NCBI GenBank assembly: GCA_018650645.1
Contig: JABIFP010000020.1
Coordinates: 82,529 to 146,528, forward strand
Origin: Candidatus Magasanikiibacteriota bacterium
GTDB lineage: Bacteria > Patescibacteriota > Patescibacteriia > Magasanikbacterales > UBA922
DNA: 64,000 bases
Direction of reading: 5' to 3'
Part shown: positions 14,466 through 62,729 of the stretch, in pieces
How the letters are laid out: the number at the start of each line of letters is the position of its first letter
How positions within the stretch are numbered: position 1 is the stretch's first letter
Made by a program: the position numbers and the translations under genes
The notes under the pieces: generated by a model
What the model saw: the letters and a program-made list of their open reading frames with translations, nothing else
What the model was told of the DNA's origin: nothing
The model's database searches: none

Positions 14466-14502
14466 GGAAAAAAACAACCCCTACGTCGCACGGACGTAGG
14501 GG
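14466..14502 (-). terminator. Intrinsic terminator for the foreign gene: CCCCTACGTC-GCACG-GACGTAGGGG followed by a T-run on the minus strand
   Basis: Perfect 10-bp stem, 5-nt loop, and a T7 tract on the minus strand immediately downstream of the stop at 14538. Confidence 0.65.
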
Positions 14503-14537
14503 GTGGCCGAAGTGGCCAGGTCAGGTGCTGAGATGCC

Positions 14538-15074
14538 TCAGCCCGTGAAGGTGACCAGCCGCGCCGCGATGTCGGCAAGCTCGAGGATCTCCACGGACAT
14601 GTCCGTCAGACTGCCCACCGGCACCAGGACCGCATCGTAGCCGATGATCCGGTTCTGGTCCTTCTGGAGCAAGTGCGAAAGCGCCCACACCTCACCGTCG
14701 ACGACGAAGTTTCCGCTCTCATCGACCGTGAACTCCTTCTTCTGGAAGACGATCCAGTGGGTCAGGCCCGCGCGGTGGACAACCTTGCCATCCTTCACGC
14801 AGATGAAGCCAGCGATCGCTTCCGCAGGCATGGCCGACTCACCTTGCCCGTTGTAGTACGTGACCCCTTCCGGGCACACCAGGCGAAGGGTCGGCTCGGC
14901 GTCGATGATGGGCGCGCCGTACGCGCCGTTCTTCAACTGGTAGAAGAGGTTCTGACCATCTTTCCCCGGGTTGAAGAAGTTGTAGCTGTCCGCCTCGTAG
15001 GTCATGGTGGTCTTGCTGTCCCCCACGACTGCGAACTCAAACACCCACTGACCACAGGTGATTTTCACCTTCAT
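14538..15074 (-). CDS. Compositionally foreign (high-G+C) hypothetical protein of 178 aa (MKVKITCGQWVFEF...); function unknown
   Basis: Strong G/C bias at third codon positions, unlike the neighbours. Consensus SD AAGGAG 6 nt before the ATG at 15074. Own terminator. The supplied 206-aa ORF extends upstream of the SD-supported start. Confidence 0.6.
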   Translation of the reverse strand: MKVKITCGQWVFEFAVVGDSKTTMTYEADSYNFFNPGKDGQNLFYQLKNGAYGAPIIDAEPTLRLVCPEGVTYYNGQGESAMPAEAIAGFICVKDGKVVHRAGLTHWIVFQKKEFTVDESGNFVVDGEVWALSHLLQKDQNRIIGYDAVLVPVGSLTDMSVEILELADIAARLVTFTG

Positions 15075-15105
15075 CTCAAACTCCTTAAGTCGTGCTCTCC
15101 ACACC

Positions 15106-15135
15106 CAAAAAACAGGCGTAGATACACCTGTTTTA
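15106..15135 (-). terminator. Hairpin plus T-run on the minus strand, downstream of the 15162..15947 gene
   Basis: ACAGG-TGTATCTACG-CCTGT followed by TTTTTT on the minus strand. It lies between the stop at 15162 and the SD of the foreign gene. Confidence 0.4.
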
Positions 15136-15161
15136 TCAAAAAAATCCCTATTTGTCAACCC

Positions 15162-49574: not shown

Positions 49575-49708
49575 ATTCCACCCGCAATGCACCTGGCAAC
49601 TACCTTGCCTTCACAAGCCCTAGGGTCTCCAGCCCCAAAGCTCAGCGCAGCAGCTGCTGTGTATCGTGTTGCTCGTGTTGTCGTTGTCGCCGAAGCGACG
49701 TCGTAGCG

Positions 49709-50086
49709 TTAGTTCGCCAGCCGAAGGCTAGCGATCCGCAGCATAGTACCAGCAGTCGTGTAGAGCTCCCCAAGGCGCAACTTCGAAAAGTCGACCCCAG
49801 GACGCATCGAACCACTCATAACGAGGACCGGAACAGACGAGAACCTCTCGGTAATAGCCTGTTTAAGCCAGAACCCGTTATGACGGTGCTGCATGTCGAC
49901 GTCCGTAATGACTAGATCGACACGCGTGGTCTCCATCAGCTCGAGAGCCTCTGGAGGGTTATTGGCGAAGACGATGTCAACGTCCATCACGTGCACCCTG
50001 GCCATGTAGCGCAACAAGTTGCGCCGGACCAAGATCTGGATGTTCGTTTCGTCGTCGACGACCAAAACAGTGGGCTTGTTACCCAT
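49709..50086 (-). CDS. Compositionally foreign (high-G+C) single-domain response regulator (CheY-like receiver, 125 aa)
   Basis: LVVDDE acidic pocket, the LVITDVDM phospho-acceptor Asp, and the VLVMSGS Thr/Ser position. SD AGGAG 5 nt before the ATG at 50086. The supplied ORF, extended to 50152, is not supported by the SD. Confidence 0.65.
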   Translation of the reverse strand: MGNKPTVLVVDDETNIQILVRRNLLRYMARVHVMDVDIVFANNPPEALELMETTRVDLVITDVDMQHRHNGFWLKQAITERFSSVPVLVMSGSMRPGVDFSKLRLGELYTTAGTMLRIASLRLAN

Positions 50087-50123
50087 GGTTGCTCCTCTCG
50101 TTGAGGTGCACCACGGGCTTTCA

Positions 50124-50135
50124 CCGTCGGGGGAT
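50124..50135. repeat. Right arm of the 12-bp inverted repeat, CCGTCGGGGGAT
   Basis: See 49563..49574. Confidence 0.6.
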
Positions 50136-50151
50136 AGCCCCAAGTAAACCA

Positions 50152-50415
50152 TTATTTTGACGTTTTGTCAATCCCTAAGCGCGTAATAAGTTGTTGTTTT
50201 TGTTCTTTTGAAAATTGTTTAATCTGCCACTCACGCTTAAGCGCCGCAGATCTATCCGTACATTTCTCACTATACACAAGTGTTATGGGGAGCCGCGCAC
50301 GCACATATTTGGCTCCTTTGCCTGATCTGTGCACCGCTAGCCGTGATTCTAGATCTTTTGCTATTCCTGTATATAAGCTACCGTCTGTGCATGACAAAAT
50401 ATAAACTGTGTACAT
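50152..50415 (-). CDS. GIY-YIG nuclease-family small protein (YhbQ/UPF0213-like)
   Basis: YTVYILSCTDGSLYTGIAKDLESRLAVH GIY-YIG motif; 87 aa; host-like composition. Confidence 0.75.
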   Translation of the reverse strand: MYTVYILSCTDGSLYTGIAKDLESRLAVHRSGKGAKYVRARLPITLVYSEKCTDRSAALKREWQIKQFSKEQKQQLITRLGIDKTSK

Positions 50416-50421
50416 ATTTGA

Positions 50422-50457
50422 TAAAAAAAATTGGCCGGCAGCTGGAGACTGACGGCC
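50422..50457 (-). terminator. Intrinsic terminator (GGCCG-16-nt loop-CGGCC followed by T9) ending the 50573..50995 module, 6 nt upstream of the GIY-YIG start codon
   Basis: Stem GGCCG/CGGCC followed by AATTTTTTTTT on the minus strand. Confidence 0.5.
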
Positions 50458-50572
50458 TAATTCGCTCCCGAAGGAGCATCTGGGTCTTTACGAGAGGAGC
50501 ACTCACGTTCTGACCACACTCTGACTATGCCCTATTTGCCCGGAGTTGTCAAGTGAATAACTCGATGCGCTC

Positions 50573-50995
50573 CTACTGGGAAAACCTGTTCGGCGGAGGC
50601 GCCTGGGGCCTTGCCTCTTGGAGCAGATGATCGCGGAGTGCGGTAGCGGCGGCTTGCGCAGCACCGTCGATGCTCGCGGCGTCGAGCGGCCCGAGAGCTT
50701 CGGCAGCATTCTGCGCTACAAATACGCGATACGCGCCAGTGAGCGCCTCGATCTGCTCGCCGTTGAGCGGGAACTGCGCAGCGTCAAGCTCAACCTCTCT
50801 GAGCGCTTGCGTATATATATATGTTAGGAAATCCCCAACATTCCCCTCCTGCGCTGACGCCAGCTTGATCTCAGCCGAAAAGGCCTTGACCAACTCACCC
50901 TCGCAAGTGAGAACACTCCCAATTCGTTCCTCGCTGCGCTCTTCTTCAATATTACGAGCGGCCCAGACTTCTGGTACCATGTTTTCCATACCCAT
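50573..50995 (-). CDS. Compositionally foreign (high-G+C) acidic hypothetical protein (140 aa, Ala/Glu-rich, Pro-rich C-terminus)
   Basis: G+C-rich codon usage. AGGGG SD 6 nt before the ATG. A structured ~120-nt 3'UTR with a GCTCC-UUCG-GGAGC hairpin. Confidence 0.55.
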   Translation of the reverse strand: MGMENMVPEVWAARNIEEERSEERIGSVLTCEGELVKAFSAEIKLASAQEGNVGDFLTYIYTQALREVELDAAQFPLNGEQIEALTGAYRVFVAQNAAEALGPLDAASIDGAAQAAATALRDHLLQEARPQAPPPNRFSQ

Positions 50996-51085
50996 CGATT
51001 TCCCCTTTACAAATTAGCGATTCCTGCCGTATACTACTCGCGTAGTTCACAGCTAGGTGGACGAAGACATTATAACATAGACTTT

Positions 51086-56818: not shown

Positions 56819-57499
56819 CTAGAGCCTGCAGCCGTTGCGAGCCACCGAGATAGCGTTCGCGAGCTTGCTTTCGACGGTCATCCTCGTCCTCTCCTCGAGG
56901 GGATAACCACCATAGTGAGCCACCTTCACGGGAGATTCATCGTGAAGGTCTACCACGATGGGAACATTCCGTGACTTGTCACCGGACGCGAGAGAAACCG
57001 CAATGATCTTTCCCTCACGGATCGTGATCTCCGGACGCTGCTGCCCCCCAGCCGAAGTCCTCAGAAGAGACATCACGTCCCGGAGAAGATCATCGCTGAT
57101 CACGATTTCCAGCTCACCGAAGGCTCCGCGGAGTTTCGCCATCACATCCAGATAGAACTCCGCTTCACGATGTAGCTGACGCAATTGCCTAAGCTCCACG
57201 TGCAGACCCGAGATGGCCTTGTGCATCGGGAGGGCATCCTCACCCCTCCGACAATGCAGCACCAGGATGCGTCCCGAGAAAGGCCCCGCGGCAATCACTT
57301 TCGGATCGCTCTGAGGGAGCATTTTCACACGCGCGCACCGCTTCCAGCTGAGAACCGTGGGTACTGGACCCACGCCAGGATACTGCACCCAGTGCTCCAC
57401 CAGCTCTTCCAGCTGATTCTCCGTGAGTTTGATCCGCTGATCCACTAGCACGTGCTGGATCGTCGCCTTCAGGGCCGCATAGAATGCCGCACTGATCAT
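56819..57499 (-). CDS. Compositionally foreign (high-G+C) hypothetical protein (226 aa); no recognisable domain
   Basis: Strong G/C bias at third positions in an AT-rich context; own terminator; AT-rich upstream region. Confidence 0.5.
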   Translation of the reverse strand: MISAAFYAALKATIQHVLVDQRIKLTENQLEELVEHWVQYPGVGPVPTVLSWKRCARVKMLPQSDPKVIAAGPFSGRILVLHCRRGEDALPMHKAISGLHVELRQLRQLHREAEFYLDVMAKLRGAFGELEIVISDDLLRDVMSLLRTSAGGQQRPEITIREGKIIAVSLASGDKSRNVPIVVDLHDESPVKVAHYGGYPLEERTRMTVESKLANAISVARNGCRL

Positions 57500-57992: not shown

Positions 57993-60350
57993 ATGTTTAT
58001 CAAAAAATACTTCAACTGGCTCCAGAAGGATAATCCCGTTGGAGACGTCGTCTTGTATCCAGAGCTCTCTACGGATAGAGAGACTTCGCTTAAGGGTGTC
58101 TATATTGCCGGAGACCTCACTGGAATTCCTCTTTTAAAGATGGCCACAAACGGTGCTGCAAATATCGTCAAAAAGCTGCAATTTGATCAATGGAAGAAAA
58201 CCAAACGGATGATGGATGCCATTGAAGCCGATAAAAAGCTAAAGAACACAGATTCTACTCAATCACATAGACCCAACAGTTTTGATATTGTCATTGTTGG
58301 CGCAGGCCCAGCTGGAATCTCTGCAGCGCTTGAGGCAAAGCGCAGAGGCTACTCGTATGTAGTATTAGAAGCATCGGACAGACTCTTCAATACCATAGAA
58401 AACTTTCCCAAAGGAAAGCCGATGTTTTATGAACCAAAAGCATTGAAAGAAGAAACAGCAATGACCATGGTTGGAAAAACAAAGGAAGAACTCCTTGGGC
58501 ACTTAAAAAATATTGTAGACAAGCATGAACCAAACATAGTATTTGGTCAGAAAGTCGATTTGATTGAAGTGGAAAGTGATGGTACCCACAAAATTTCAAC
58601 AAAAGCAGACACATACCATGCAAAGAAAACTATTTTAGCATCTGGCAAAAGTGGCCATAGTAGAAAGCTCGGTATTCCCGGGGAGCATCTTTCTCATGTC
58701 ACAAACTGTTTATACGATCCGCAAGAATATTCAGGCAAGCAAGTATTAGTTATTGGTGGTGGTGACAGTGCGCTTGAAAGTGCTGCGCTACTAGAAAAGG
58801 CTGGTGCAAAAGTAACAGTTTGTTATAGAAAAAAAGAATTCGTGCGGCCAAAGCCAGATAATATTCAAACAGCACTTACTCTGCAAGAGTATGGCAAGCT
58901 CACTCTTTTATTTGAATCAAGTCCAAAAGAAATTAGAGAAAAAGAAGTCGATATTGATGTTGCAGGAGAGCGCAAAACCTTTTCTTTTGATCATGTCTTC
59001 ACCCTGATTGGTACACAACTCCCTTACGAATTTTTTGATAAGTGCGGCATCAAAATTGAAAATGCAAAAACAAAAACCACCTATTGGTGGATGGCATTTT
59101 CTGTTGCCTTTATGAATGTTGTGTATTTTGGAAAAGCCTCAAACGGTATTACCGGCCATGCTGGAGCAGCGGAATTTACCAATATAGTTGCGGGTAATCC
59201 TACAGAAATCATCTTTAAAACAATTGCTTGGCTAAGCGCAATTGCAATGATTGTAACGGGCGTGGTTGTACTAAAAGACTTAATTAAAAACTGGAAGAAA
59301 TATTTCACGAATAAATGGGATTATATCCGCAACGGATACTTCTTTGCAGCCATGGTACTCTTTATCTTTTCTTTTTTTGGTAACAAATATTTCAACTTCA
59401 ATTTAGGAAATCAGGATCCATACTTTTGGTACAGCTTCCTCTATACCACAACTATTGGGCTATTTGGCCTGCGGCGCATTGTAGTAACCAAAAAAACGTA
59501 CGTCACCAAACAAACGATTCTCCTCTTTTTGATCCAAGCACTTCCCCTCTTCTTTATTCCAAACTTTGTATTGCCCTGGATGGATGCACATGGATTAATC
59601 TCTGAATGGGTACGCCAAACAGTGTTCCTTGGTGGCGAATGGTGGCGATTCGTTGGATTTATTCTTGCCTGGCCGCTGTTTATCTGGAATGTGTTTACCG
59701 ATCAGCCAAGTATCTTCTGGCTTGTTACCAGTTTGATTCAAACCTTTGTAATTATTCCATTTTTGGTTATCAAATATGGAAAAGGAGCCTACTGCGGTTG
59801 GATTTGTAGCTGCGGCGCAATGGCAGAAACACTCGGTGACGAATACAGAAAGCTTGCGCCACATGGAGCAAAAGCAAAAAAATGGGATAATGCCGGACAA
59901 GTGATATTGTTTATCATAATGGCCATTACTATTCTGAGACTCCTCGGATATGTCCCGAGTCTTTCTGGAGCACTTGCTGGCATAAACTCCGTACTCCTCG
60001 ATGGATATAAAATTATCGTTGATACCTTTTTAGCTGGAACTGTTGGTGTAGCACTATACTTCTTTATGGGTGGCCGTGTGTGGTGCAGATTCTTCTGCCC
60101 GCTGGCTGCACTTATGCACATCTACAACAAATTCTCTACCTGGCGCATTTTGTCTGACAAAAAGAAATGTATTTCTTGCGGTCTTTGTACTAAATCGTGC
60201 CACATGGGAATCGATGTGATGGGATACGCACAGACAGGAAGAGTATTAGACGATGTGGAGTGTGTAAATTGTAGCGCTTGTGTGAATGTGTGTCCTACTG
60301 GAGTGTTGAGTTTTGGAAGATATGGGAAGGTTTGGAATAAGAAAATATGA
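57993..60350 (+). CDS. Fusion protein: FAD/NAD(P)-binding pyridine-nucleotide-disulfide oxidoreductase domain + polytopic membrane region + NapH/MauN/NosR-like polyferredoxin (CxWxCxxG and two 4Fe-4S CxxCxxCxxxCP motifs)
   Basis: DIVIVGAGPAGISAALEA (FAD GxGxxG), VLVIGGGDSALESAALL (NAD GxGxxA), more than 8 TM helices, CGWICSCGA, CISCGLCTKSCHMG, CVNCSACVNVCPTG. The GD motif (VYIAGDLTG) lies N-terminal to the first GxGxxG. Confidence 0.6.
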   Translation: MFIKKYFNWLQKDNPVGDVVLYPELSTDRETSLKGVYIAGDLTGIPLLKMATNGAANIVKKLQFDQWKKTKRMMDAIEADKKLKNTDSTQSHRPNSFDIVIVGAGPAGISAALEAKRRGYSYVVLEASDRLFNTIENFPKGKPMFYEPKALKEETAMTMVGKTKEELLGHLKNIVDKHEPNIVFGQKVDLIEVESDGTHKISTKADTYHAKKTILASGKSGHSRKLGIPGEHLSHVTNCLYDPQEYSGKQVLVIGGGDSALESAALLEKAGAKVTVCYRKKEFVRPKPDNIQTALTLQEYGKLTLLFESSPKEIREKEVDIDVAGERKTFSFDHVFTLIGTQLPYEFFDKCGIKIENAKTKTTYWWMAFSVAFMNVVYFGKASNGITGHAGAAEFTNIVAGNPTEIIFKTIAWLSAIAMIVTGVVVLKDLIKNWKKYFTNKWDYIRNGYFFAAMVLFIFSFFGNKYFNFNLGNQDPYFWYSFLYTTTIGLFGLRRIVVTKKTYVTKQTILLFLIQALPLFFIPNFVLPWMDAHGLISEWVRQTVFLGGEWWRFVGFILAWPLFIWNVFTDQPSIFWLVTSLIQTFVIIPFLVIKYGKGAYCGWICSCGAMAETLGDEYRKLAPHGAKAKKWDNAGQVILFIIMAITILRLLGYVPSLSGALAGINSVLLDGYKIIVDTFLAGTVGVALYFFMGGRVWCRFFCPLAALMHIYNKFSTWRILSDKKKCISCGLCTKSCHMGIDVMGYAQTGRVLDDVECVNCSACVNVCPTGVLSFGRYGKVWNKKI

Positions 60351-60390
60351 TGCCTAATAACTTCATACCGAAATTTTTGTAAATTCAAAT

Positions 60391-61386
60391 ATGCTAACCA
60401 GTACCATTACTTCTAGTACCGAATCAGTAAATATAGCTAAATTAATTATAAAAAACATTGATCTCATAACTTTGTTTTCTACAATTTCTATAGCTCTCTT
60501 AGGCTGGCTTATATCAATTTTAATCCAAGGCAAAATCGTAAAAAAACAGCACAGGATAGCGATAGGGTATGCTATATACAAAGAATTTGTAAAACTTCAC
60601 ATGGAAGTACAAAACACCCTAAGTACATTAAACGCAAGCTCTAGACCGCCCTTTATAATAATGGAAACTATTATGATTGTTCGGCCTCAGACTAGTATTG
60701 AAATAACCCATGTAATTGAAGCAGGCAAAGAGTGGGAAAAATTCATTAATAAATTAAACACTTTATATTTTGACTTTACTGATAAATACCTTGAAATTCT
60801 TTATCTCTTTTCTGACTGGGAAGCAGCGTTTAAATCACTAGCATTCACTAAAAATTGCTTGTCTGAGGAAATCAACTCTCTAAAATCAAAAATATATTCT
60901 GATATATCAATATTGCAAATGTACACAGTAGATCACGGATACGATTGGAGAAAATGGGATAGAAAGGAGATTGAGATAATCATTAATAGGATCGCTGAAA
61001 ATATACTTGATATTACCAGCTATCTTGGAGATTTTATGATTCTTCTCCACAATGAAACCTTATCCAATTATTTCAAGCAAAAACGTGAAATACGAATGAC
61101 AACAGATCCCAGATATAGAGTTTTAACAAAAAAAGGTATAGTAGAGAATCTAGATGTTAACCTGATCGAAAAAATGAAAAAACACAAAAGTATACATGAT
61201 GAAACAATAGAAAAAGAACTACTCGTTACTACTCCCTCTGATAAAAAGAATCTAAACTTGCGAAAAGCAGGAATCTGTCCAGACTGTAACACAGATATTG
61301 AAGTAAAAGATACTATAGTGGAGACAGAAAAAACGTTTTTTTCTTATACCTGTGGTCATGGATGGAATGTATTCTCACAAAAATGA
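60391..61386 (+). CDS. Compositionally foreign (very AT-rich) hypothetical protein: N-terminal TM helix, long alpha-helical middle, C-terminal zinc-ribbon-like CPDC...CGHG
   Basis: AT-rich codon usage clearly below the neighbours. A hydrophobic segment at residues ~25-45. C-x2-C...(24)...C-x-H at the C-terminus. Confidence 0.5.
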   Translation: MLTSTITSSTESVNIAKLIIKNIDLITLFSTISIALLGWLISILIQGKIVKKQHRIAIGYAIYKEFVKLHMEVQNTLSTLNASSRPPFIIMETIMIVRPQTSIEITHVIEAGKEWEKFINKLNTLYFDFTDKYLEILYLFSDWEAAFKSLAFTKNCLSEEINSLKSKIYSDISILQMYTVDHGYDWRKWDRKEIEIIINRIAENILDITSYLGDFMILLHNETLSNYFKQKREIRMTTDPRYRVLTKKGIVENLDVNLIEKMKKHKSIHDETIEKELLVTTPSDKKNLNLRKAGICPDCNTDIEVKDTIVETEKTFFSYTCGHGWNVFSQK

Positions 61387-62729
61387 ATCTAGATACCAAA
61401 ATATTGAGAAAAAAAATATTTAGTTGGTCGCTCTCCATTTTATCTATTTCTGGAGCTTCTCTTTTCATATCCCAATTTTCCCAACCCCTCCTCCACCCAA
61501 CAAAACTCACCACCACCCTAGCAGTCATGTTCCTCGGCTACCTCGGTATTCTTTATCTGAAACCTAAAAACCTCTGGCTTATTTTGGGAACCAGCATCAC
61601 GGCCCAACTCATCTTCCTTTTCATGCCGGCATTCTTCAATGACTTCTACCGCTACCTGTGGGATGGAAATATGCTCCTGCAAGGAATCAGTCCATATGCA
61701 CTTACTCCATGGGATGTCTTTGATACCCCAGCCCTCCAATCACTCACAGATGTGTGGTACTGGGATTCCTTGTACTTTAAATGGAGCAACACCATTTATC
61801 CACCAACTCTCCAGCTGGTCTTTGCCTTTGCAAATGCCATCAAGCTGAACAGTACGCTCGTATTAAAATCAATCTTCTTTCTATTTAACCTAGGAACCTT
61901 TGGCATTGCTATCAAACTCCTAGACCACCTCAAACAACCGCGCTACCTGATTGCACTTATCGCCCTCAATCCCCTTTTTCTTTTTGAAACGATGGCCGCC
62001 GGGCATTTTGAACCGATTCTCCTATTCTTCCTTTTGCTTACATTGTATTTACTCGTCAGAAACAAACACATATTAGCGGGCCTAAGTTTTGGCGCACTGA
62101 TTCTTACCAAATATTTTCCAATTTTACTCGCGCCACTATTTATCTTGAAAAAAAGATACAAATGGTGGATCTCTGCGCTCATAACAATTGTAACAATGAG
62201 TCTGCTGTATCTTCCGTTTGTACTCCTCACACCTGACACTTTTCAGCTGTTTGAATCTCTGAAAACGTTTCATGCCGATTGGGTAATGAGCCCAGGGATT
62301 TTTGCACTGCTGCAGATTGCTTTTGGATATGGCACGGCAAAAATCCTAAGCATGCTACTGACCATTGGTGCCACACTCCTTGCCTATAGATCTTTTTCCA
62401 AACACCAAAACATTTTTGAAGCTACCTGGCAAATCCTTTTTGCGCTCATTATATTCTCTTCCGTTGTATTCTCTTGGTATGTATTATGGCTTGTGGTGCT
62501 CCTTCCATTTGTAAAATACCGACTGTCCACTATTGCATTATCAGGAGTAGTCCTGCTACAGTACCTAGTACTCTACTACAGTAGCGCCGAGCAAACATTC
62601 CTATACCGCCAAAACGGGCAGGTCTGGTGGCTACAGCTACTGATTTGGGTGCCTCCACTTTTTGCATTTGCATATGAAGCCTACAAACACAAACGCACTC
62701 TTCTTTTACGCTCGTCCAAAAACGAGTAA
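61362..62729 (+). CDS. Polytopic membrane protein (GT-C/DUF2029-like glycosyltransferase candidate); the true start is possibly the ATG at 61527, where composition returns to host-like
   Basis: More than 10 TM helices; no soluble domain. The 5' ~165 nt of the supplied ORF lies inside the AT-rich island. Confidence 0.4.
   Translation: MECILTKMNLDTKILRKKIFSWSLSILSISGASLFISQFSQPLLHPTKLTTTLAVMFLGYLGILYLKPKNLWLILGTSITAQLIFLFMPAFFNDFYRYLWDGNMLLQGISPYALTPWDVFDTPALQSLTDVWYWDSLYFKWSNTIYPPTLQLVFAFANAIKLNSTLVLKSIFFLFNLGTFGIAIKLLDHLKQPRYLIALIALNPLFLFETMAAGHFEPILLFFLLLTLYLLVRNKHILAGLSFGALILTKYFPILLAPLFILKKRYKWWISALITIVTMSLLYLPFVLLTPDTFQLFESLKTFHADWVMSPGIFALLQIAFGYGTAKILSMLLTIGATLLAYRSFSKHQNIFEATWQILFALIIFSSVVFSWYVLWLVVLLPFVKYRLSTIALSGVVLLQYLVLYYSSAEQTFLYRQNGQVWWLQLLIWVPPLFAFAYEAYKHKRTLLLRSSKNE

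Follow-up and report, generated by a model that had tools for sequence, protein, structure and literature searches.

The Candidate Phyla Radiation (CPR, or Patescibacteria) makes up a big share of bacterial diversity, and its members have tiny genomes, are mostly without CRISPR and appear to depend chiefly on restriction-modification (R-M). In Type I R-M operons, prrC and rlo genes sit at a position matching that taken by one clade of the protein family described here. T4 Imm and lactococcal Sie2009 are non-suicidal superinfection-exclusion membrane proteins that block the entry of phage DNA. DUF4238 is a validated single-gene defence against T7 (Rousset et al. 2022, PMC9122126). Here we analyse a window, by which we mean the whole stretch of 64,000 nucleotides from a Candidatus Magasanikiibacteriota bacterium (contig JABIFP010000020.1, positions 82,529 to 146,528 of the forward strand), and within it an AT-rich gene at 60391-61386 (plus strand, stop codon included) that encodes a protein of 331 amino acids (aa).

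The 331-aa open reading frame (ORF) is a genuine gene for a single-pass membrane protein. Relatives of the protein are encoded in R-M operons, in defence islands and in prophages, and for this reason we regard the family as a reasonable phage-defence candidate. Our preferred reading is that the gene works alone, on the cytoplasmic side of the membrane, to defend against phages or to exclude them. Taken as a whole this reading seems to us evenly balanced between right and wrong, and each single mechanism by which such a factor might act is much less likely than that reading as a whole. A family confined to the CPR and absent from the defence catalogues is a concrete candidate for an unrecognised part of CPR phage resistance.

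An unnamed protein family almost confined to the CPR

An exhaustive HMMER search of 1.84 billion representatives returned 75 homologous cluster representatives at E<=1e-3, of which 44 were at E<=1e-10. The exhaustive search was needed to expose the family, as a word-indexed homology search recovered one homologue only. All matches of the family profile are unnamed proteins without Pfam domains. The family occurs in twelve species-representative genomes, 11 of them from the CPR (the CPR carriers include Buchananbacteria, Paceibacteria, Saccharibacteria, Falkowbacteria and Minisyncoccia), and its distribution across CPR classes is patchy, with all homologues less than 50% identical to the window protein. 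The family is thus unnamed and almost confined to the CPR/Patescibacteria. The window protein itself has no above-threshold match in Pfam, NCBIfam or PADLOC, and none in PADLOC-DB v2 at E<=1. Conservation, topology and library tests were run on 40 family members; no Pfam, PADLOC or PHROGs match is common to them, and PADLOC yielded just three single-member matches, each with an E-value of about 0.003. A search of the family profile against the sequences of the PDB gave no match. We therefore treat the family as an uncatalogued candidate defence family, outside Pfam, PADLOC, PHROGs and the PDB.

The core of the family alignment spans residues about 25-255 of the window protein. It begins with a single transmembrane (TM) helix at residues about 25-47 (60466-60531 spans residues about 26-47; plus strand, as are all features of the gene), in which G38 is conserved in 95% and W39 in 100% of members. 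The most hydrophobic 19-mer of the protein has a mean Kyte-Doolittle value of 2.16, and that of the runner-up window is 1.18. Lysine plus arginine average 0.72 in the 15 residues before the helix and 3.75 in those after it, with the same asymmetry in 40 of 40 members, which places the N-terminus outside and the remainder of the protein, helical bundle and zinc ribbon included, in the cytoplasm. The TM helix is followed by an elongated helical bundle, residues 48-228 (60532-61074), whose conserved positions are Y63, M91, W143, a DWRKWD loop (185-190) and the motif D214-x5-H220-N221-E. Residues 229-255 (61075-61155) comprise R235 and a YRVLTKKG beta-hairpin that closes the core; here conservation is 93% or more at R235, L245, T246 and G249, and the family form of the hairpin is VLTKxG. 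Two linker helices (residues 256-292, 61156-61266) and a C-terminal zinc ribbon with CCCH ligands (61267-61383) complete the protein.

These C-terminal elements are a derived addition. Linker helices and zinc ribbon occur only in one subclade, that of the window protein, and many members of this subclade bear a further extension of about 90 aa, whereas the short forms of roughly 250-310 aa lack the linker helices. In a neighbour-joining tree the zinc-ribbon forms make up one large derived clade and the short forms coupled to hsdS make up another clade; the window protein groups with the family members of two other loci, L011 and L012. The zinc motif reads C296-P-D-C299, 21 residues, then C321-G-H323. 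In family members P0003-P0008 it takes the form CPxC...CG(H/D)xW, in which three cysteines are kept and the fourth ligand is histidine or, in two proteins, aspartate. With two knuckles that carry four ligands on a small beta-sheet, the region has the predicted form of a zinc ribbon.

A single-sequence AlphaFold (AF2) model was useless, with a predicted local distance difference test score (pLDDT) of 43, and was replaced by one built on a 40-sequence alignment, which reached a pLDDT of 92.5 and a predicted template modelling score (pTM) of 0.83. This model has helices at 25-82, where the TM helix extends as a stalk, and at 104-142, 144-176, 191-223, 256-279 and 282-292; hairpin strands at 244-246 and 249-251; and zinc-ribbon strands at 305-311, 314-319 and 324-328, where pLDDT stays above 90 as far as residue 320. 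An earlier note, made from the sequence of the window alone, had described one N-terminal TM helix, a long helical region and a C-terminal CPDC/CGHG motif. The first two descriptions agree with the model, which has nothing but helices in the central part of the protein. The third is borne out in kind, as a zinc-ribbon-like three-stranded sheet with C296, C299, C321 and H323, but with a spacer of 21 residues and not the 24 then given. Foldseek searches of the PDB and BFVD found nothing at E<=1e-3, only generic helical bundles (designed proteins, Tar/Tsr and, at low probability, ClyA-type proteins). The confident model and the clear domain plan, of TM helix, bundle, hairpin and optional zinc ribbon, make the family amenable to testing by heterologous expression.

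Family neighbourhoods and a proposed mechanism

ORFs were called in about 35 loci, and their neighbours were labelled by Pfam, PADLOC and precomputed Pfam contig labels. Counted by hand, R-M, defence or prophage/integrase genes occur within four genes of the family gene in about 18 of 25 non-redundant loci. In three loci (L001, L019 and L021) the family gene lies directly upstream of hsdS with an overlap of 11-14 nt, the order in L019 being HsdM - RhuM - x - PIN_12 - family - HsdS - HsdR - YgjP. In L013 the family gene is immediately preceded by an AAA_13 gene, and this in turn by Type I R-M genes; L049 has the order HsdS - HsdR - YgjP - HEPN_AbiV - family; a full-length YgjP-like gene comes after hsdR in L019, L021 and L049. 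The neighbour counts include HsdS (five times), N6_N4 methylase (five), ResIII (four) and Resolvase (four).

Immediate neighbours in other loci are DUF4238 (L017 and L036), GmrSD (L042) and PLD-SNF2 (L039). An AAA_15/21 gene adjoins the family gene in L016 and in L047, where UvrD, MazG, an SLFN helicase and Zeta toxin are also in the vicinity of the L047 gene, and in L011 an AAA_15/21 gene occurs together with RloB and GIY-YIG. A trypsin-like peptidase is found in L001, L016 and L018, Trypco2 in L021, and Bro-N with AbiEii in L050. Serine recombinases occur in at least six family loci, and the prophage-like loci contain ParB-methylase, helix-turn-helix (HTH) and terminase-large-like genes. Surroundings made up of housekeeping genes only are seen in this window and in L045. 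As 160 neighbours fall into 124 clusters and the neighbouring ATPases are not orthologous, we conclude that the family has no fixed partner and is a single-gene module. A fixed two-gene system with an upstream ABC-type ATPase was considered and rejected, since the ATPases of L013, L016, L047 and L011 are not orthologous.

Two further arrangements were observed among the family loci. At 7974-11225 of L017, an AT-rich islet of three genes (the family gene, DUF4238 and an APH-type phosphotransferase) has a G+C content (GC) of 0.38-0.39 against about 0.50 in its flanks, a clear case of a compact foreign island in a Patescibacteria genome. In one long-form subclade, a Peptidase_S51 gene precedes the family gene (L022, L038 and L050) and a conserved 124-aa gene without known domain follows it (L020, L038, L050 and L051); the set may form a small conserved cassette in prophage-like elements.

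The family travels as single-gene cargo of Type I R-M operons, of defence-gene neighbourhoods and of the integrase end of prophage-like elements. A short N-terminal tail lies outside the cell, and the TM helix, with its G-W pair, anchors the protein. In the model that we propose, the cytoplasmic domain, by way of the hairpin, the zinc ribbon or both, would sense a phage product or a disturbed host complex, whereupon the TM helix would self-associate and then either perturb the membrane or block DNA entry. Conservation suggests that the helix with its near-invariant G-W pair may be more than an anchor, with self-association as one example, and D214, H220, N221 and R235, together with the hairpin, could be where the protein binds a partner or carries out catalysis, although they fit no known motif. 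In its most specific form the proposal is that of a CPR-specific, previously unrecognised single-gene abortive-infection effector, whose hsdS-coupled ancestor would have guarded the Type I R-M complex in a PrrC-like role by means of its membrane helix, and which would later have gained a zinc-ribbon sensor and spread as free cargo of prophages and chromosomal hot spots. We consider this full sequence of events unlikely.

The window copy and its locus

Upstream of the 331-aa gene lies a gene for a 785-aa membrane protein in which a pyridine-nucleotide-disulphide oxidoreductase is fused to a NapH-like polyferredoxin (57993-60350, plus strand; Pfam Pyr_redox_3 at 1e-40, Fer4_5 and Fer4_9; NCBIfam NapH/MauN), and between its stop codon and the ATG of the 331-aa gene is an AT-rich spacer of 40 nt (60351-60390). 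Downstream is the gene for a GT87/MptB-like polyprenol-dependent glycosyltransferase of 448 aa (61383-62729, plus strand; Pfam GT87 at 1e-10), the ATG of which overlaps the TGA stop codon of the 331-aa gene as ATGA. DUF2064-GT2 comes next, and MutS and DUF378 are encoded upstream. No terminator-like site is found between the 331-aa gene and its neighbours. Shine-Dalgarno-like motifs precede only 8 of the 49 ORFs of the window, and such motifs being rare in this genome, the lack of one before the 331-aa gene is uninformative.

The interval between the oxidoreductase and GT87 genes (60351-61382 in the window) varies among relatives. Across Magasanikbacteria-like relatives it holds from one to seven unrelated small genes, including glyoxalase/bleomycin-resistance genes. 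Three relatives (L025, L026 and L027) keep the backbone of oxidoreductase-polyferredoxin, GT87, DUF2064 and GT2 around the interval, and in these loci the hidden Markov model of the family finds zero homologues at E<=10. In L025, where the oxidoreductase is 86% and the GT87 protein 73% identical to those of the window, the interval contains an OmdA-like gene and a 213-aa gene; in L026 (73% and 52%) it contains seven small genes, among them NUDIX and glyoxalase genes; and in L027 (60% and 49%) it contains three genes. Since all three relatives have both flanks, unrelated genes between them and no family homologue, the interval is a variable cargo site and the 331-aa gene is accessory there. That the protein might be a conserved core gene in relatives, the prospect which the earlier note had named as fatal to its view, is thereby answered in the negative. 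For the window, the practical gains are the recognition of a variable cargo slot and the re-annotation of the start of a neighbouring gene.

That start is the one of GT87, which the same note had moved, as its probable position, to 61527. Nine aligned GT87 homologues conserve residues encoded 5' of 61527 (QPLxxPxKL, with P42 and L43 invariant), so the start must be 61383; several gene calls likewise begin the 448-aa protein there, and the closest homologue, at 72% identity, starts MNI..KKILSF, in agreement with MNLDTKILRKKIFSW.

The drop in GC that first drew attention to the gene is real. Mean GC over the 64-kb window is 0.424, and that of the 331-aa ORF is 0.317, the minimum among 996-bp windows (z = -3.2; 0.3% of windows are equally low). 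A likelihood scan delimits the AT-rich segment as 60336-61425 (GC 0.307; log-likelihood ratio 31.6 nats), the top AT-rich segment in the 64 kb. This sharp fall was rightly noticed before, although the island had been drawn as 60351-61526, about 100 nt past the end near 61425 given by the scan; it consists of the 331-aa ORF, the 40-nt 5' spacer and about 40 nt of the GT87 gene. The encoded protein is rich in isoleucine (13%), lysine, leucine and threonine and poor in glycine, alanine and proline, and the low GC of the gene is largely set by this amino-acid content. Across the family, GC at third codon positions (GC3) is below that of neighbouring genes in 18 of 20 loci, and at second positions (GC2) in 19 of 20.

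The genuine synonymous-site outliers of the window are GC-rich and lie elsewhere. The ORF at 14538-15158 (minus strand, 206 aa) has GC 0.576 and GC3 0.79 (z = +4.8) and overlaps 14476-15075 (GC 0.61), which deviates more strongly in composition than any other part of the window. The ORF at 56819-57499 (minus strand, 226 aa) has GC 0.583 and GC3 0.69 (z = +3.7) in a host genome of 42% GC, has no match in Pfam, NCBIfam or PADLOC, is preceded by a strong Shine-Dalgarno-like AGGGAGGGG and is found in all population contigs; as a candidate for foreign origin it outranks the AT-rich gene. A further patch at 49600-51000, with GC up to 0.66, contains small minus-strand ORFs. Two of them, of 147 aa (49709-50152) and 140 aa (50573-50995), flank an 87-aa ORF at 50152-50415. 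Judged from the translations only, the 147-aa ORF resembles a response-regulator receiver and the 87-aa ORF a GIY-YIG nuclease.

A metagenome-assembled genome of Candidatus Magasanikbacteria encodes a 'hypothetical protein' with 100% identity to the 331-aa protein, and the longest contig that carries the gene measures 407 kb, which suggests that the gene is chromosomal. Among the population contigs, seven that come from independent assemblies end at or near 60882-60888 or 61403-61467, and another ends at 61247. One of these ending contigs has a strain-specific single-nucleotide polymorphism (SNP) at 60882 (A>G), and three that end at 61440-61467 share a linked SNP at 56892 (T>C). Together, contig ends and SNPs suggest a population of several strains, which part from one another in sequence at the 3' end of the 331-aa gene and the 5' end of GT87. 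No tRNA gene and, at gathering threshold, no Rfam family was found in the 64-kb window.

Alternative explanations and described systems

A number of observations weigh against the reading of the window copy as a phage-defence or exclusion gene. The copy lies in a co-directional, housekeeping-looking string and appears to share a transcript with envelope and redox genes. Its neighbours include no defence or mobile gene, it is not in a defence island, and no recombinase or integrase adjoins it. Repeats flanking the locus are of 11-14 nt and at chance level only, with none resembling attachment (att) sites. All 23 population contigs with an identical oxidoreductase gene also have the 331-aa gene, at 99.97-100% identity, and no presence/absence polymorphism was seen among them. 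Neither sequence nor fold similarity links the family to abortive-infection, defence or toxin families. Searches by tblastn found no homologue among INPHARED phages or PLSDB plasmids, and IMG/VR gave none; the prophage-like context of the family is seen only in CPR genome bins. The tally of neighbourhoods was made by hand on about 25 loci from our own ORF calls, with no formal background, and several of the loci are phylogenetically linked, the three hsdS-adjacent members being one clade.

Composition belongs among these points as well. Against the 49 ORFs of the window, the gene is an outlier in total GC (z = -2.6) and at first codon positions (GC1 0.369, z = -3.5), with GC2 at 0.302 (z = -1.6) and GC3, at 0.281 (z = -0.8), inside the host range. 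A deficit that lies mainly at the first two codon positions, with a normal GC3, is weak evidence for a recent foreign origin, and the compositional outlier of the earlier note therefore holds for total GC and GC1, whereas its synonymous-site signal is weak. The same note had considered such an AT-rich gene with TM plus effector architecture to be typical of abortive-infection or defence genes acquired from phage or plasmid. The relatives do adjoin R-M, defence and prophage genes. The window copy, on the other hand, is an orphan without homology to defence families: the homology and structure searches that the note recommended gave no match in PADLOC, Pfam or, for the 40 members, PHROGs and no fold match, and no effector domain is recognisable. 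An acquisition from phage or plasmid finds no homologue in INPHARED, PLSDB or IMG/VR, and neither the flanking att-like repeats that were to be looked for nor an integrase or tRNA gene at the locus.

Of the alternatives, a non-suicidal superinfection-exclusion protein that blocks phage DNA entry, in the manner of T4 Imm or Sie2009, would share the defence reading and differ in mechanism, as the infected cell would not be killed. Long forms of the family adjoin a serine recombinase at the ends of prophage-like regions (L016, L018, L030 and L050) that also hold the ParB-methylase, HTH and terminase-like genes, and a single-pass membrane protein in which no enzymatic motif is recognised would suit this role. 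However, the bulk of the protein, including the zinc ribbon, is cytoplasmic, a better fit to intracellular sensing than to a block at the surface, and neither the members of the hsdS-coupled clade nor the orphan copies on chromosomes belong to prophages. We rate this explanation as unlikely.

The family might instead supply an accessory or regulatory subunit of Type I R-M, acting as a membrane tether or as a guard of the Hsd complex, in which case the window copy would be an orphan without its R-M partner. The translational coupling of the short-form clade to hsdS (L001, L019 and L021) is seen among diverged family proteins, and L013 and L049 are also Type I R-M loci. YgjP is a usual companion of hsdR in L019, L021 and L049. 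A short, truncated YgjP-like metallopeptidase gene of 175 aa also lies some 3 kb farther downstream than the window copy and beyond the window (at 11782-12309 of L002); it could be all that is left of a former Type I R-M locus, or be there by coincidence. Yet for most members, in about 20 of 25 loci, the surroundings contain no Type I R-M gene. The region of the window that was examined contains no hsd genes, and the window copy is outside any R-M operon. It is also known that Type I R-M loci act as hot spots for unrelated defence cargo. A subunit role thus appears quite unlikely.

Less probable still is a housekeeping role specific to the lineage, in which the membrane protein would act together with the products of the adjoining operon genes, for the redox membrane protein and for GT87/GT2 envelope glycosylation, and would owe its AT-richness to helices rich in isoleucine, lysine, asparagine and threonine. 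The short gap upstream, the ATGA overlap with GT87, the lack of a terminator, an unremarkable GC3 and the presence of the gene on every population contig are all as expected of such a protein, and the L045 member likewise lies among housekeeping genes. Against this, the slot between the same two neighbours holds no family gene in the three relatives, neighbours of the oxidoreductase/polyferredoxin or GT87 kind occur at none of the other family loci, and the homologues, below 50% identity, are patchily distributed across CPR classes; we think it very doubtful. A chance ORF in AT-rich spacer DNA, which would have the unusual composition in its favour and nothing more, is refuted by the 75 homologous clusters with conserved motifs, the high-confidence fold and the conservation across CPR classes.

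The reading as a phage-defence or exclusion factor can also be set against systems already described. The window protein matches TackOD1 (PF18551) and DUF7837 (PF25207) weakly in its C-terminal part, zinc ribbon included. Both matches score 15 bits (E 0.018 for TackOD1), below the gathering thresholds of 32 bits for TackOD1 and 27.8 for DUF7837, and none of the 40 members reaches E<=0.01; both identities were rejected as sub-threshold and not common to family members. Tar/Tsr and ClyA-type proteins, which were among the Foldseek matches, share with the family a long antiparallel helical bundle on a membrane helix. This is generic helical similarity only, at E 0.5 or worse and with template modelling scores (TM-scores) of 0.13-0.31; the Foldseek probability is about 0.3-0.75 for Tar/Tsr and at most 0.12 for ClyA-type alpha-pore-forming toxins, which give no significant fold match, and the bundle of Tar/Tsr is periplasmic whereas that of the family is cytoplasmic.

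The T4 Imm, Sie2009 and Csx28-type proteins resemble the family in outline only, as small stand-alone membrane-anchored proteins of prophage-like elements and defence islands. There is no match to them in sequence or fold; one of 40 members has a chance-level PADLOC match to tm_HEPN (E 0.003), and a HEPN identity was rejected because the family alignment has no conserved R-x4-6-H motif. We know of no counterpart in these proteins to the large cytoplasmic helical domain or the zinc ribbon of the family. DUF4238 is an unrelated protein, without a match to the family, but it neighbours the family gene in two independent loci, and each of the two genes is carried by variable hot spots as single-gene cargo.

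With PrrC and RloC the difference is one of domains and the likeness one of position. The ABC-type ATPase, the AAA_13 domain and the anticodon-nuclease domain are absent from family members, and the RloC-type AAA_13 of L013 is a separate neighbouring gene. With these defining domains missing, the family is not a member of the PrrC/RloC group and has a TM helix and a helical bundle in their place. Like PrrC and RloC, however, the family has one clade inside Type I hsd operons, where it is coupled to hsdS and encoded as a single gene with no fixed partner.

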